Positions 21,241-47,134 of a DNA stretch of 64,000 nucleotides are shown in pieces. The notes below the pieces were generated by a model, which was not told where the DNA came from, did not search any database, and saw only the letters and a program-made list of their open reading frames with translations. The first letter of the stretch is position 1. Each line of letters begins with the position of its first letter. Source of the DNA: an uncultured Armatimonadetes bacterium (GTDB taxonomy: Bacteria > Armatimonadota > Hebobacteria > Hebobacterales > Hebobacteraceae); assembly GCA_963699135.1 (NCBI GenBank), contig OY969415.1, forward strand, positions 3,833,577 through 3,897,576, written 5' to 3'. The position numbers and the translations under genes are program-made.

Positions 21241-21522
21241 ATGCTGCCCTCTGAGAGGAGTGAGAAGTGGGTGCGGCGCCTGGCCTGGGCCGCATTCATT
21301 TTTGTGATCCTGTACTTGCTCATCTGGATGATCAAGTTCATCGTACCGGTGTTCGGGAATGTGATGAAGCAGCGGGAGCCGCCGCCGGAGGCGCGGGGGA
21401 CGGGAACGGCGGGGAAGGCTGCGAGGATCGTTGCCCGGCACGATTGTGCCGGGCAGAAGCCCGCTGGGGGACAACTGGCCGTTCGTCCCCCAGACCCCCT
21501 CACCGGCTTCTGGCGTTTCTGA
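21241..21522 (+). CDS. Possible small membrane protein whose 3' end runs into repeat family B
   Basis: MLPSERSEKWVRRLAWAAFIFVILYLLIWMIKFIVPVFGNV... has one TM helix. The last 30 codons are encoded by repeat B, so the C-terminus is doubtful. Confidence 0.3.
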   Translation: MLPSERSEKWVRRLAWAAFIFVILYLLIWMIKFIVPVFGNVMKQREPPPEARGTGTAGKAARIVARHDCAGQKPAGGQLAVRPPDPLTGFWRF

Positions 21523-23025: not shown

Positions 23026-23531
23026 TGGAACTGATGGAGGTGGTGCGGCAGCGGCGCAGCGTGCGTAAGTACCGGCCGGATCCGGTGCCGCAGGCGAAGC
23101 TGGACCTGGTGCTGGAGGCGGCGCGGTTGGCGCCGTCGTGGGCGAATGGGCAGTGTTGGACGTTTATCGTGGTGACCGATCCGAAGGTGAAGCAGGAGTT
23201 GGCGAAGGCGGGGAATGAGTGGATCGAGCAGGCTCCTGCCATTATCACTGCCTGCGCGGACCCGAAGGCGAGCGGCACGAAGGGGGATCAGGGCTACTAT
23301 CTGCTGGATATCGGCATCGCGATGGAGCACCTGGTGCTGGCGGCGGCCGAGCAGGGGCTGGGCACGTGCTGGATCGGCTGGTTCGATGAGGCGAAGGCGA
23401 AGAAGGCGCTGGGGGTGCCCGACGGGATCAGGGTGGTGGCGACGACGCCGCTGGGATATCCGGACGAGGAGCCGGAGGCGCGGTCTCGCAAGCCGCTGGA
23501 GGAGATCGTGCGGAAGGATCGGTGGGGGTAG
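23026..23531 (+). CDS. Nitroreductase family protein
   Basis: MELMEVVRQRRSVRKY...LEAARLAPSWANGQCW...GTCWIGWFDE, the classic NADH/nitroreductase fold motifs. Shine-Dalgarno GAGGAGGAGAG. Confidence 0.85.
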
Positions 23532-23534
23532 GGA

Positions 23535-23885
23535 GGCGGCATTCACCGCAGAGACGCAGATGACGCAGAGAGCGGAAAGGCGTGATCCCTCGCTTCGCTC
23601 AGGATGACAACAGGGAGGGAGTGGCAGGACCGAGGTCCTGCCGAACGGGAGGAAGGGGAGAGGCACGCCGGGGACGGACGCGAGGAACGAGCACCGAGAT
23701 TGCCACGGGGCGGCGACTCTGTCGCTGCCCATCGCAATGACAGATAGCAGTGAGTGGCAGGAGCACGGGATGAATCCCGTCCCTGCGGGGGCATCGGCGA
23801 CAGGCTACCGAAGGAACCAACACCGAGATTGCCACGCGCGCCTCGGCTCCGGTCGGAGCCGAGGCGGCTCGCAATGACAGAGCGA
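23535..23885. repeat. Composite mosaic repeat array (modules C, TGATCC/CAGGATGACA, F, A, A-variant)
   Basis: Non-coding. Contains CGCAGAGACGCAGATGACGCAGAG, GGCAGGACCGAGGTCCTGCC, GAGATTGCCACGGGGCGGCGAC...GCAATGACAG, and a long-stem variant GCCTCGGCTCCGGTCGGAGCCGAGGC. Confidence 0.75.
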
Positions 23886-24187
23886 GTGAGAGGTTGGGGG
23901 GTGGGGGAGCGGAAAGCGGGATTATTGGGGTTTATGGCGCGGGTCTGAGGGGGTATGTGGCAAGTAAGGCCTGCCGATTCGGTCTGTGATCGAACTGGGC
24001 TTCTCATCTTTGCGGATTGCCGAGGATCGCTTCGCGTTCCGGTGCGGACCGGGTTGGGAGAATGCGTCGGTCTCCCATGCACGCGGGGCGATGCTCGCGC
24101 GGCGCGATGGCGCGACAGCCCGCAGCCTCAGTACGGTCCCGCGGCATGGGTCCAACTTCAGCCGAGTGTGGCAAGATTCTGCAGACC

Positions 24188-31689: not shown

Positions 31690-31925
31690 TGGTCCGGGGG
31701 CGGACGCGAGGAACGAACACCGAGATTGCCACAGGGCGGCGACTCTGTCGCTGCCCCTCGCAATGACAGTGGGGGAGGGAGTGGCAGGACCGAGGTCCTG
31801 CCGAACGGGGGAAGGGGAGAGGCACGCCGGGGGCGGACGCGAGGAACGAACACCGAGATTCCCGCTAGAGGCGGGCAAGGCCACGGGGCGGCGACTCTGT
31901 CGCTGCCCCTCGCAATGACAGTGGT
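31690..31925. repeat. Composite repeat (module F + family A, twice), + orientation
   Basis: GGCGGACGCGAGGAACGAACACCGAGATTGCCAC...GCAATGACAGTG occurs twice, separated by GGGAGTGGCAGGACCGAGGTCCTGCCGAACGGG. Confidence 0.8.
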
Positions 31926-32060
31926 GGGGGGGGCAGGAGGCGGGCGGCTGCTCTCTGCGGGGCTCCTGCGAAGCTTACGAGAATGTGGAATAAGCGGTTG
32001 TGGTGCGGCGGTTCCACACCGGCACTTCACCTTTTGCACTTGTAGAAGTGGAGTCTTTCC

Positions 32061-33759: not shown

Positions 33760-34390
33760 TCCACCGCAGAGACGCAGAGGGAATGGCAAGGCGCGATCCC
33801 CGCCGGAGGCGGGCAAGTTTCGCTGTGCTCAGGATGAGAGCAACGGCGGAACGGCAACGGCAGTAACCGCAGATTGCGCACCCTCCTCACGGCCGGCGGG
33901 CAGGGATTGCGCAGATTAGGCCCGCCTACCGGCGGGCGAACGGCAACGACGAAGCACCGCGGGGCAGCGACTGTGTCGCTGCCCTTCGCAATGGCAACGG
34001 GAGGAGGGAGGGCGTGATGAATCACGCCCCTACGGGAGGGGCTTCGGCAGTAGAACTACCGAAGCAACGGGAAACCCCCTCACCGGCTCTTAGCGTCCTG
34101 GCGAGAGCATTGGGTGGCAGCGGCGGGAGGGAGTGGCAGGAGGCAAGCTCCTGCCCAACGGGGAGACGGCGGGATTGCCACGCGCGCCTCGGCTCCAGTC
34201 GGAGCCGAGGCGACTCGCAATGACAGTGAGGGAGGAAGTGGCAGGACCGAGGTCCTGCCGAACGGGAGGAGGGAGGGCGTGATGAATCACGCCCCTACGG
34301 GAGGGGCTTCGGCAGTAGAACTACCGAAGCAACGGGAACGGCGAGATTGCCACGGGGCGGCAACGGCCGCCCCTCGCAATGACGGCAGGA
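33760..34390. repeat. Longest composite mosaic repeat array, about 630 bp (modules C, D, A-variants, B-tail, F, G x2)
   Basis: Non-coding. It contains two copies of GGGCGTGATGAATCACGCCCCTACGGGAGGGGCTTCGGCAGTAGAACTACCGAAGCAACGGGAA (module G), the hairpin GCCTCGGCTCCAGTCGGAGCCGAGGC, and two family-A hairpins. Confidence 0.8.
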
Positions 34391-39798: not shown

Positions 39799-41067
39799 CT
39801 AGAGCTTGAGGCGAAAGATGACGGTCTCGGTCATCTGGAGGAGGATGGCGGCGGCGAGGACGCCGGCGAGGATGACGACGGCGTTTTCGGCGGAGAACCA
39901 CTGGGCCTCCTGGAGGGGCTGGGCATAGGGAACGGCGGCGACGGTGCCGGCGAGGAGGCTGCCCAGGTACTGGTCGAGGTACTGGTAGCCGTCCCGGAGG
40001 GGGGTGATGAGCATGCCGATGATGGCGGCGGCGGCCGGGTAGGCGAGCCAGGAGAGGACGCGGTACTTGAACTTCTGGTGGTCGAGGTAGATGGGGCACT
40101 CGCCGCAGGGAGGTCGGTTGCGACGGACCCGGGAGGGGGCCTTCTTGAGGGGCGCGGGTCGCTTGGCCTGCATCTGCTGAGCCCGAGACTGGACAGTCTG
40201 CATCTCTTCGGCGACCTGGACCTTGGCGCGGGAGCCGACGGTATCGAGCAGCCGGGTAGCAAGCCCCTGGTCGCAGTAGCAGCCGGAGCGGGCCTTCCAG
40301 CAGGATTTCTGCTCGTGGTAGCGGGGACAATGCACCCGGAGACTGCCGCGGCAGAAGTGAAGCTCCCAGCACTTGCGCATGAGGGAGGGCTTGCCGCCGA
40401 TGGGCTCCTCGGACATGTTGGCCATGGCAGAGGCGAAACCGGCGTGGCGGGTGATGGCACCGGTGCGGGGGGCATAGGACACGAGGATGACGCGCCCGAT
40501 GACGGCCCGCAGGAAACCGAGGACCATCATGATGCCGCCGGAGGTCTGGAAGCTGCCGATCATGGAGTAGGAGAGGTCAACCAGGTCCTGGGCGCTGGTG
40601 GCCGGGACGCGGCTGCGGATCACGATTGGGAGAACAAGCCAGCAGGCAACCCCCGCCACGAGCAGCATGAGGCCGGTCGCTTCGGCCCGGTAGTGGCGAA
40701 TGCTTGCCGCGAGCAGACAGAGCCAGAGCCCCCAGAGGAAGACTTGGCTGATGAATCCGACATTGCGCTTGACGCCCTCGAGGGCGGTGCCGGCGATGAT
40801 GGGGGCGGCCAGCCCACCTGACATGAGGATGAACATGAGATAGGTGAGGCTGAGGAGCGCGGCGACGGCGCTAAGGCAGATGCACTGCTCCAGCGCTCTC
40901 TGCCAGGCAGGTCGAACTACCCGTTCGGGCTCGGTGCGGGGCTTCGGTCTACGGCCACCCATCCCGATCGTCTCCCTCGGCGCATCCCGTCTTGAGATGG
41001 CCCACAATCGCAGTATAGCCGAGGCAGAGGCGGCTGACAAGGGCTGGAGGGCGCTGTATCCACCCAA
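39799..41067 (-). CDS. Hypothetical multi-pass membrane protein with a cytoplasmic Cys-rich segment
   Basis: About 8 hydrophobic segments. A central loop reads CWELHFCRGSLRVHCPRYHEQKSCWKARSGCYCDQ...CGECPIYLDH. The start is uncertain (ATG at 41067, or at about 40960). Confidence 0.5.
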   Translation of the reverse strand: MGGYSALQPLSAASASAILRLWAISRRDAPRETIGMGGRRPKPRTEPERVVRPAWQRALEQCICLSAVAALLSLTYLMFILMSGGLAAPIIAGTALEGVKRNVGFISQVFLWGLWLCLLAASIRHYRAEATGLMLLVAGVACWLVLPIVIRSRVPATSAQDLVDLSYSMIGSFQTSGGIMMVLGFLRAVIGRVILVSYAPRTGAITRHAGFASAMANMSEEPIGGKPSLMRKCWELHFCRGSLRVHCPRYHEQKSCWKARSGCYCDQGLATRLLDTVGSRAKVQVAEEMQTVQSRAQQMQAKRPAPLKKAPSRVRRNRPPCGECPIYLDHQKFKYRVLSWLAYPAAAAIIGMLITPLRDGYQYLDQYLGSLLAGTVAAVPYAQPLQEAQWFSAENAVVILAGVLAAAILLQMTETVIFRLKL

Positions 41068-41109
41068 GGAGGGCGGGAGACCGGGCTGCGAATTTCTCCC
41101 AATTCCCCC

Positions 41110-41138
41110 TTGACAGGGCCCTGGGGGGTCGCTATACT
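41110..41138 (+). promoter_or_regulatory. Consensus sigma-70-type promoter TTGACA-17 bp-TATACT
   Basis: -35 box TTGACA at 41110..41115, a 17-bp spacer, and -10 box TATACT at 41133..41138. Confidence 0.6.
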
Positions 41139-41144
41139 CCGTGC

Positions 41145-41262
41145 AACAAACCGCATATGACCCCTGGTGGCGGGTCTACATAAGTGACAGGCTAACCCCA
41201 CCCCAAACCCCACCCCACCACGAGGCGGCAGACTCCCCCGGTCTGCCGCCTCACCTTTTTTT
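41145..41262 (+). ncRNA. Candidate small RNA of about 118 nt with a C-rich motif (CCCCACCCCAAACCCCACCCCACCAC), between the consensus promoter and a strong intrinsic terminator
   Basis: No plausible ORF. The promoter lies directly upstream. The 3' end is formed by a 12-bp GC stem plus a T7 tract. The C-rich stretch is complementary to G-rich Shine-Dalgarno-like sequences. Confidence 0.45.
41222..41262 (+). terminator. Rho-independent terminator
   Basis: GAGGCGGCAGAC-TCCCCCG-GTCTGCCGCCTC (a perfect 12-bp stem), then ACC TTTTTTT. Confidence 0.75.
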
Positions 41263-41269
41263 GGGGGGG

Positions 41270-41413
41270 GGGGGCGGCATTCGCCGCAAAGGCGCAGAGG
41301 GCGCAGAGAACGGCGAAGGCGTGATCCTTCGCTGCGCTCAGGATGACAGCAACGGCGGAACGGCGACGACGAGATTGCCACGGGGCGGCGACGGCCGCCC
41401 CTCGCAATGACAG
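41270..41413. repeat. Composite repeat (module C, TGATCC/CAGGATGACAGCAACGGC module, family A)
   Basis: GCGCAGAGGGCGCAGAG ... GTGATCCTTCGCTGCGCTCAGGATGACAGCAACGGCGGAACGGCGACGAC GAGATTGCCACGGGGCGGCGACGGCCGCCCCTCGCAATGACAG. Confidence 0.8.
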
Positions 41414-41541
41414 TAAGGTGGGCCAGTTGCGTGACTGGCTTGACAGTGTCGTCGGTGATTGGTAGGGTCAGCAGAAGCGCTGATGGCGGCGCGGGACGAG
41501 GGGGGGGACGCAAGAATTAGCCGAATCGGAGGGAAGTAGCT

Positions 41542-41707
41542 GTGTCAAAGTGGCAATGCACCGCCTGTCCTTACGTCTATGACCCCACGGTGGGGGATCC
41601 GGAGAACGGGGTGGCGCCCGGGACGGCATTTGAGGAACATCCCGGACGACTGGACGTGCCCGGTGTGCGGGGTGTCGAAGGACCTGTTCGAGGAGGTCGT
41701 GGAGTAG
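41542..41707 (+). CDS. Rubredoxin, interrupted by a 1-nt indel near 41636
   Basis: [32 protein letters not shown], then a frame change. The +1 frame continues ...[21 protein letters not shown], giving the second CxxC. The indel sits in a C-run. Confidence 0.7.
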
Positions 41708-46810: not shown

Positions 46811-47044
46811 CGGCGGGAACGGCAACGGCAGTAACCGCAGATTGCGCAGATGACGCAGATTGGCGCCCGCCTAACGGCGGGCGGAACGGCAACGACGTGA
46901 TCCTTCGCTGCGCTCAGGATGACAGCAACGGCACACGGCCCCACCCCTGCTGCGCAGGGGTAGGCTACTGGCTGAGGATGACAGTAGTGGGGGCGAACAC
47001 CGAGATTGCCACGGGGCAGCGACGCGGTCGCTGCCCCTCGCAAT
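46811..47044. repeat. Composite repeat (modules D, TGATCC/CAGGATGACAGCAACGGC, E and family A); left copy of a direct-repeat pair flanking 47135..47407
   Basis: GGAACGGCAACGGCAGTAACCGCAGATTGCGCAGATGACGCAGATTGGCGCCCGCCTAACGGCGGGCG...GTGATCCTTCGCTGCGCTCAGGATGACAGCAACGGC...GGCCCCACCCCTGCTGCGCAGGGGTAGGCTACTGGC...GAGATTGCCACGGGGCAGCGACGCGGTCGCTGCCCCTCGCAATGACAG. Confidence 0.8.
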
Positions 47045-47134
47045 GACAGCAGGAGAGCTACTTGCGCGGGACGACGTTGCTGGTGACGGGTGGGCCGCCG
47101 AAACGCGAAGGGATTCCACGCAGGGAGGACTTGA

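Follow-up and report, generated by a model that had tools for sequence, protein, structure and literature searches.

The intergenic region between a gene for a Cys-rich membrane protein and a rubredoxin gene contains a consensus promoter, a C-rich stretch and a terminator-like hairpin, which raises the question of whether it forms the gene of an independent small RNA (sRNA), and of how such an RNA would act. A first-pass annotation had called it a stand-alone sRNA and had kept a cis-acting leader or attenuator of rubredoxin as the alternative. The present analysis covered the window (the whole stretch of DNA analysed, 64,000 nucleotides) and the homologous loci of other genomes. The stand-alone call is strongly supported by sequence conservation, by covariation and by the absence of any conserved ORF, and the region very probably encodes a real, independently transcribed small non-coding RNA of ~118 nt that matches no described family.

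Promoter, hairpin and transcript in the window

The promoter TTGACA-17-TATACT that had been reported at 41110-41138 was recovered by a consensus scan on the plus strand, with the -35 hexamer TTGACA at 41110-41115, a 17-bp spacer and the -10 hexamer TATACT at 41133-41138, and it matches the consensus at 11 of 12 positions. Only three sites reach 11/12 on the two strands of the 64-kb window, and a 10-kb scan gave 3 promoter-like sites against 0.5 expected from shuffles. About 85 nt after the promoter (41222 versus the promoter end at 41138) starts a hairpin of 13 pairs, 12 of them Watson-Crick and one U-G, which spans 41222-41252 and is followed by ACC and T7, ending at 41262. The 12-bp GC stem with a T7 tail described earlier (41222-41262) was thereby confirmed by scan, and it is the single instance, on both strands of the 64-kb window, of a perfect hairpin of at least 10 bp with at least 5 T behind it. 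The C-rich string CCCCACCCCAAACCCCACCCCACCAC, also noted before, was located at 41196-41221; it is unique in the window, where shuffles predict 0 matches. A perfect tandem duplication of AACCCCACCCCA was detected at 41194-41217 by Tandem Repeats Finder. The folding energy of the predicted transcript interval is -41.2 kcal/mol (z = -4.8 versus shuffles).

We infer that the gene is expressed, and its exact transcript ends were predicted from the geometry of promoter and terminator, with the 5' end placed 6-8 nt past the -10 hexamer and the 3' end within the run of T. The structure of the gene and its divergent neighbour is established as follows:

39802-40962, minus strand: gene of a 387-aa multi-pass membrane protein with 8 invariant Cys, the conserved divergent neighbour (homologue alignment)
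41012-41040, minus strand: divergent promoter TTGTCA-17-TATACT of the membrane-protein gene (scan; AGTATA...CAAG conserved in the alignment)
41089-41107, plus strand: A/T-rich block gcGAATTTCTCCCAATTCc, UP-element-like, an A/T stretch at about -42 to -52 with a putative UP function
41110-41138, plus strand: sigma-70-type promoter TTGACA-17-TATACT (scan; common to all 44 distinct homologues)
41145-41262, plus strand: predicted sRNA transcript of ~118 nt (match of covariance model R1 at 41143-41261, 130 bits)
41159-41176, plus strand: 5' hairpin GACCC...GGGUC (family consensus GACUCGC-loop-GCGAGUC; covariation)
41192-41221, plus strand: invariant C-rich region CUAA-CCCC-A-CCCC-AAA-CCCC-A-CCCC-A-CC-AC, with AACCCCACCCCA twice, the proposed seed or binding platform
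41222-41252, plus strand: terminator hairpin with a 12-bp stem GAGGCGGCAGAC/GUCUGCCGCCUC and the loop UCCCCCG at 41234-41240 (scan)
41253-41262, plus strand: ACC spacer and T7 tail (read from the sequence)

On the 3' side of the terminator, the window contains a G12 run, then ~150 nt of dispersed repeats and then the rubredoxin promoter. The repeat array mentioned in the first-pass annotation does exist downstream; it lies outside the RNA and is a window-specific insertion of dispersed repeats. The repeat family has two modules, GTGATCCTTCGCTGCGCTCAGGATGACAG and GAGATTGCCACGGGGCGGCGACG..GCCGCCCCTCGCAATGACAG, and a copy of it sits as an insertion between the terminator of the sRNA gene and the promoter of rubredoxin. 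Copies of this two-module repeat were found at 41263-41420, 23520-23700, 23800-23930, 31860-31960, 34150-34260 and 46840-47060; the orthologous intergenic regions lack them, and the insertion is confined to the window genome. A second dispersed repeat of ~80 nt, a double hairpin TTGCCCGGCACRATTGTGCCGGGCAGAAGCCCGCTGGGGGACGACTGGCCGTTCGTCCCCCAGACCCCCTCACCGGCTTCT that looks REP- or MITE-like, has seven copies in one orientation with 91% mean column identity (each ~90 nt, at 21421, 22770, 25784, 39587, 45947, 48045 and 58475), one of which lies just past the stop codon of the membrane-protein gene, in the spacer before an Fe-ADH gene. Runs of 8-12 G or C occur at 41263-41274, 10049, 11387, 25721, 31926, 39517, 41500 and 58443. 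The G12 run abuts the T-tail of the sRNA, and a G8 run lies within the rubredoxin 5' UTR; the G12 run is complementary to the C-rich seed (inverted repeat I4) and is unconserved in orthologues. The rubredoxin of the window (41542-41707) is split over two frames, the first part ending in GTAFEE, owing to a single additional base near 41633-41636 (GAGGAACATCCC, against E-[DEG]-V-P in the orthologues); the gene is a pseudogene, or the frameshift is an error of assembly or sequencing. In every orthologue, rubredoxin is intact and 54-55 aa long.

Homologues of the RNA and their conservation

Homologous loci were gathered through the contigs of membrane-protein homologues, a protein-alignment scan of a metagenome collection and a genome scan with a 21-mer. 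In total, 56 loci with 44 distinct sequence variants were obtained, with one copy per genome, and the hosts belong to the Armatimonadota, class Candidatus Hebobacteria and relatives. Hebobacteria are a class of anaerobic sediment Armatimonadota known solely from anoxic-sediment metagenomes (PMC10290634). Most loci of membrane-protein homologues bear the sRNA gene in the identical divergent placement. The 21-mer, CCCCACCCCAAACCCCACCCC, was found in 57 stretches among 185,579 species-representative genomes; 11 of these are the true sRNA, each single-copy, and their genomes include the complete chromosomes OY970296.1 and CP070816.1 (one copy each) as well as four MAGs labelled Candidatus Hebobacteria or Hebobacterum.

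The other stretches with the 21-mer were discarded as unrelated CCCC...GGGG hairpin repeats (sphingomonads, Anaerolineae), actinobacterial repeats or assembly junk. In sphingomonads, Hyphomicrobiaceae and Anaerolineae, CCCCACCCCAAACCCCACCCC forms one arm of short CCCC...GGGGAGGGG hairpin repeats unrelated to the sRNA (loci L023-L034, L041-L044, L051-L053, L063, L066, L072 and others). With the covariance model R1, built from 29 sequences, no second copy of the sRNA was found in the window, and no diverged copy was found in the loci where something else neighbours the membrane gene, for example a csp gene, tRNAs or IS remnants. A search of viral contigs for the sRNA sequence gave no matches, and literature searches gave none either.

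Several assemblies deserve separate mention. The contig JAUVSA010000006.1 (L058), labelled 'Bacillota bacterium', carries the sRNA together with an Armatimonadota-type membrane protein (47% identity); the bin is probably mislabelled or contaminated. The contig ends of L009, L015, L077, L078, L080 and L129 fall inside the invariant core of the sRNA at differing positions, which fits the core being an assembly breakpoint among co-occurring relatives. In L050, an N-gap lies within the RNA.

All homologues share the promoter, the 5' hairpin, a 33-nt stretch (CUAA CCCCACCCCAAACCCCACCCC ACCACGAG) and the terminator hairpin with the UCCCCCG loop. The promoter pattern CCCTTGACA-N17-(C)GCTATACT was found in 44/44 distinct homologues, and nearly all of the 43 aligned promoter regions have an A/T-rich stretch at about -42 to -52. 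In the promoter alignment, no operator shared between the divergent promoters was detected besides this A/T-rich block, the rest of the inter-promoter DNA being unconserved. The RNA starts with ~20 variable nt, followed by the hairpin, which is doubled in some lineages. Five of the seven pairs of the 5' hairpin show two-sided changes that preserve pairing, and 95.6% of cells are paired, compared with 34-45% in the control in which the 3' partner was slid by 1-3 columns. A semi-conserved linker, YACAUAKGU..ACAGG, lies 3' of this hairpin.

The linker is followed by a near-frozen block of 63 nt, GCUAA-CCCCACCCCAAACCCCACCCCACCAC-GAGGCGGCAGACUCCCCCGGUCUGCCGCCUCA, which shows mostly 0-1 and at most 3 mismatches across lineages; in the same lineages, the neighbouring proteins are only 64-76% (Fe-ADH), 60-78% (Zn-ADH) and 40-73% (membrane protein) identical. 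Within it, the 33-nt anchor from CUAA to GAG, whose last three bases GAG are the start of the stem, is identical in all 56 loci and 44 variants. The terminator stem is paired in 100% of cells across 29 sequences: A-U became G-U in 5 sequences, one compensatory change from G-C to A-U was observed (L108), and the loop-closing pair changed once, from U-G to U-A, with pairing kept. The C5 of the terminator loop is invariant. Covariation, which the first-pass annotation had suggested examining, therefore supports the 5' hairpin, and the changes in the terminator keep its pairing; together they establish selection at the RNA level on both hairpins. In the orthologues, the tail retains CACCUU, followed by just 2-5 U (T7 in the window), and because the U-tail is this short in most of them, the mode of termination is not certain.

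The consensus fold obtained with RNAalifold contains solely the 5' hairpin and the terminator and leaves the C-rich stretch unpaired. In partition-function folding of 39 variants, the C-rich region has a mean unpaired probability of 0.75. The loop UGGUGG of hairpin 1 can pair with CCACCA of the seed in a subset of the variants, the window included. Such a pseudoknot or self-masking was dropped as a family feature and left out of the family model because only a subset of lineages has it.

Coding potential and neighbouring genes

Could the conserved unit be something other than a free-standing RNA gene? One candidate product is a small protein: either the GTG frame of 89 aa, or a shorter peptide rich in Pro and Thr whose frame crosses the C-rich region. 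Of the three forward frames, two stay open across the core, and the window has a GTG-initiated ORF of 89 aa at 41141-41410. This frame, which the first-pass annotation had not considered credible, is unconserved, and in the window it passes through the terminator into the non-conserved repeats. In at least 15 of the 39 variants, neither open frame offers an ATG, GTG or TTG inside the transcript; furthermore, the indels of the 5' region are not multiples of 3, there is no Shine-Dalgarno sequence, and synonymous-site variation is zero. These results establish that the unit is non-coding and make a peptide product barely credible.

The proposal that the RNA is a cis-acting 5' leader or attenuator of a downstream rubredoxin / Zn-ADH operon finds some footing in the gene order, as rubredoxin is the next same-strand gene in the window and in many orthologous loci. 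However, the RNA is followed by citrate synthase in L014, by NuoE/F-like genes in L018 and by an ORF of 123 aa in L016, and the constant partner of the RNA is instead the divergent membrane-protein gene. Rubredoxin has its own promoter on the 3' side of the terminator, TTGACA-17-TAGGGT at 41440-41468 in the window and TTGACA-17-TAGCTT or similar (TTGACA-17-TAGNNT) in the orthologues. In the window, the start codon of rubredoxin lies ~280 nt beyond the terminator, a distance that includes the inserted dispersed repeats. No conserved alternative antiterminator fold was seen in the consensus, and no riboswitch family matched in Rfam. Since the downstream gene varies and has its own promoter, the leader or attenuator that had been named as the alternative is contradicted, and we reject it as highly improbable; the independence of the RNA from the downstream gene is established by the same comparison.

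On the other side, the unit and the gene of the Cys-rich membrane protein (39802-40962, minus strand) are transcribed away from each other, just as had been annotated, and the latter gene is linked to the sRNA gene at every sRNA locus with enough flanking sequence. Homologues of the membrane protein (P0001-P0099, ~385 aa) were found on Armatimonadota-type contigs only. Family searches assigned the protein to no Pfam or NCBIfam family, and an exact look-up showed that it is not on record. Several long predicted helices flank a Cys-rich domain (CWELHFCRGSLR..CPRY...CW..RSGCYCDQ ... PCGECPIYLEHQ). An AlphaFold model was confident for the transmembrane helices only, and its Cys-rich domain was of too low quality for a fold search. 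The protein may be a metal or redox sensor. The Fe-ADH gene always follows the membrane-protein gene, and the gene of a TPR/zinc-ribbon protein on the opposite strand adjoins Fe-ADH. In lineages without the sRNA at this site (L095, L096, L102, L110 and L114), the divergent position is taken by a gene for a cold-shock protein (MARGKVKWFNPQKGYGFIEV...), which has a TTGACA promoter of its own; elsewhere, tRNA genes (L091, L092) or an apparent mobile-element remnant (L097) are found there.

The conserved linkage to the membrane-protein gene could also be taken to mean that the element works as DNA, with a template-strand G-quadruplex motif, GGGGTGGGGTTTGGGGTGGGG, and the 12-bp palindrome controlling that gene and the transcript being incidental; both the G4-forming sequence and the perfect palindrome can be read straight from the sequence. 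Nevertheless, the element lies 150-240 bp from the promoter of the membrane-protein gene, beyond a conserved promoter that points into it, and the compensatory changes of the 5' hairpin, together with the changes to G-U and from G-C to A-U in the terminator, indicate selection on RNA. Because the observed substitutions are of the helix-preserving RNA type, a DNA-only role is improbable.

Candidate modes of action and comparison with known RNAs

The reading that we favour, with a joint probability of roughly one half, combines a gene and a mechanism: a single-copy gene with a strong sigma-70-type promoter and a GC-rich hairpin end would give rise to a non-coding RNA of ~115-150 nt across the family, and this RNA would act in trans, pairing through its C-tracts with G-rich sites in mRNAs. 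The pairing mechanism, the targets and the physiological role are put forward here as a model with three modules. The first is the 5' hairpin (two in some lineages), the sequence of which drifts while the pairing is kept, and which is probably a stabilising cap. The second, a linker of ~55 nt predicted to be unpaired, ends in an invariant run of four CCCC tracts (AACCCCACCCCA twice, then CCAC). The third, the terminator hairpin, carries a fifth C-tract in its loop, UCCCCCG. Single-stranded stretches rich in G, mostly within or beside the RBS of several unlinked mRNAs, would be the pairing partners of the exposed C-tracts, and the pairing would change the translation or stability of these mRNAs; the strong G-C pairing could make a chaperone dispensable. 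Occlusion of the RBS through pairing with G-rich Shine-Dalgarno regions, as the first-pass annotation had proposed, is plausible by analogy.

Pairing in trans is considered the most likely mechanism because there are precedents among experimentally studied sRNAs with multiple C-tracts and because Shine-Dalgarno regions with GGGG are frequent; a crude count showed that G-rich RBS regions with GGGG are common in the window genome. The target searches covered 64 kb and short loci. Complementarity to the seed was no more frequent in ~450 translation-initiation regions of the available loci than in coding controls, and no conserved interaction of the sRNA with four syntenic genes was detected (z-scores near 0). 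Perfect 9-mer complements of the seed were scattered over the window, none of them at a convincing RBS. A duplex-energy scan of the window was uninformative because its predictions were swamped by the G-rich background. Since these tests sample a small fraction of any genome, they weaken the trans-pairing hypothesis only slightly.

The degree of conservation calls for a second explanation to be weighed. All of the 33-nt stretch, with its linkers, and nearly all of the terminator stem are invariant. This goes beyond what is usual for multi-target seeds, and it fits a ligand of a protein or of cellular machinery at least as well; in a pairing seed, one would not normally expect each base of the linkers to be frozen as well. 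Accordingly, we considered an abundant housekeeping or global-regulator RNA that would bind a conserved protein or cellular machine rather than mRNAs, its regularly spaced C-tracts, free of G and U, and its invariant hairpin titrating or guiding a C-tract-binding factor. Candidate partners would be Rho, a KH-domain or cold-shock-domain protein, or a G-rich rRNA segment, with a logic like that of CsrB/CsrA or 6S/RNAP. We regard this explanation as doubtful. It is favoured by the contrast between the invariant 33-nt stretch, with a terminator stem-loop nearly so, and proteins that are 40-78% identical, and by the motif being a perfect tandem and mirror-symmetric repeat. The promoter is like that of a stable RNA: it has consensus hexamers 17 bp apart, an A/T-rich block upstream of them and a GC-rich discriminator, and it lacks a conserved operator. 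Rho primary sites prefer C-rich, G-poor, unstructured RNA. In addition, the local searches gave no mRNA target signal, and there is no long complementary partner elsewhere in OY970296.1 and CP070816.1, as a scan of both strands gave one match in each. Against it, no candidate protein gene is linked to the locus, the C-tracts number just four to five, and none of the results is direct support for binding to a protein. Between species, the known protein-sponge RNAs differ in the number and spacing of their motifs, whereas both are fixed here.

A more specific form of this explanation, a constitutive and abundant housekeeping RNA of anaerobic Armatimonadota whose C-tract array and hairpin dock onto or titrate a core component, is rather unlikely; if true, the RNA would rank with 6S or CsrB, as a global regulator of a new kind. 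The total invariance of the 63 nt, setting aside the few mismatches mentioned above, poses a concrete puzzle and could point to a new RNA-protein partnership. In practical terms, the invariant core breaks metagenome assemblies and could be used as a lineage marker.

The RNA was also compared with known families. A search of the whole window against Rfam 15 at the gathering threshold returned two tRNAs only, with no match to the sRNA and none to 6C or RsaE/RoxS. A permissive search (E <= 10) with the locus and the divergent homologue L016 gave matches at chance level only (sX13, MIR1858, int-alpA and M23), and 6C and RsaE/RoxS were absent among the matches up to E = 10 for the window region and L016. 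The best match to the locus was sX13 (RF02232), with 17.3 bits and E = 0.74 against a gathering threshold of 50 bits; what aligns is mainly the C-rich loop CUCCCCC of the terminator together with the stem, and the L016 variant has no sX13 match. With 17.3 bits below the 50-bit threshold, the RNA is therefore not a member of sX13. As far as literature searches show, no regulatory RNA of Armatimonadota has been described. The RNA constitutes a new sRNA family, belongs to a general kind that is already known, and is confined to an uncultured class of Armatimonadota. It would be the first conserved sRNA family for the Hebobacteria lineage and is backed by a clean alignment, by a covariance model and by a fixed landmark in the genome.

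RepG of Helicobacter pylori pairs through a C/U-rich terminator loop with a G-repeat in an mRNA leader. The present RNA resembles it in that the terminator loop is the invariant UCCCCCG and the genome has many runs of G8-G12. The two show no homology, and RepG has one main target with a variable G-repeat, whereas the main C-rich module here lies outside the terminator. The sRNA sX13 acts independently of Hfq on G-rich mRNA motifs. This RNA of the Xanthomonadaceae is likewise ~115 nt long with several CCCC motifs, but it comes from Gammaproteobacteria and has three stem-loops with the C-motifs in the loops.

The 6C RNA binds the G-rich RBS regions of several mRNAs with its C-rich loops, without a chaperone such as Hfq or ProQ (PMC6486639). 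Like the RNA described here, 6C of Actinobacteria (M. tuberculosis) is small and independently transcribed, occurs in high-GC hosts, exposes runs of C and is conserved across a large taxon. In 6C, however, the C-runs lie in two hairpin loops, whereas here four C-tracts lie in a single-stranded tandem repeat and one in a loop; the two RNAs belong to different phyla and have no detectable homology in sequence or structure. RsaE/RoxS is reported to target the Shine-Dalgarno regions of metabolic mRNAs through C-rich regions (PMC5419742, PMC10433868). This RNA of Bacillota is also highly conserved and has several C-rich regions, which lie in loops and in single-stranded segments; redox-responsive factors control it, whereas the present RNA shows no visible conserved operator and a different architecture. 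The family adds a further independent case of the 'multiple C-tract' sRNA design, beside those of Actinobacteria, Bacillota and Xanthomonas, and it supports the view that strong G-C seed pairing recurs as a solution in high-GC or Hfq-independent bacteria.
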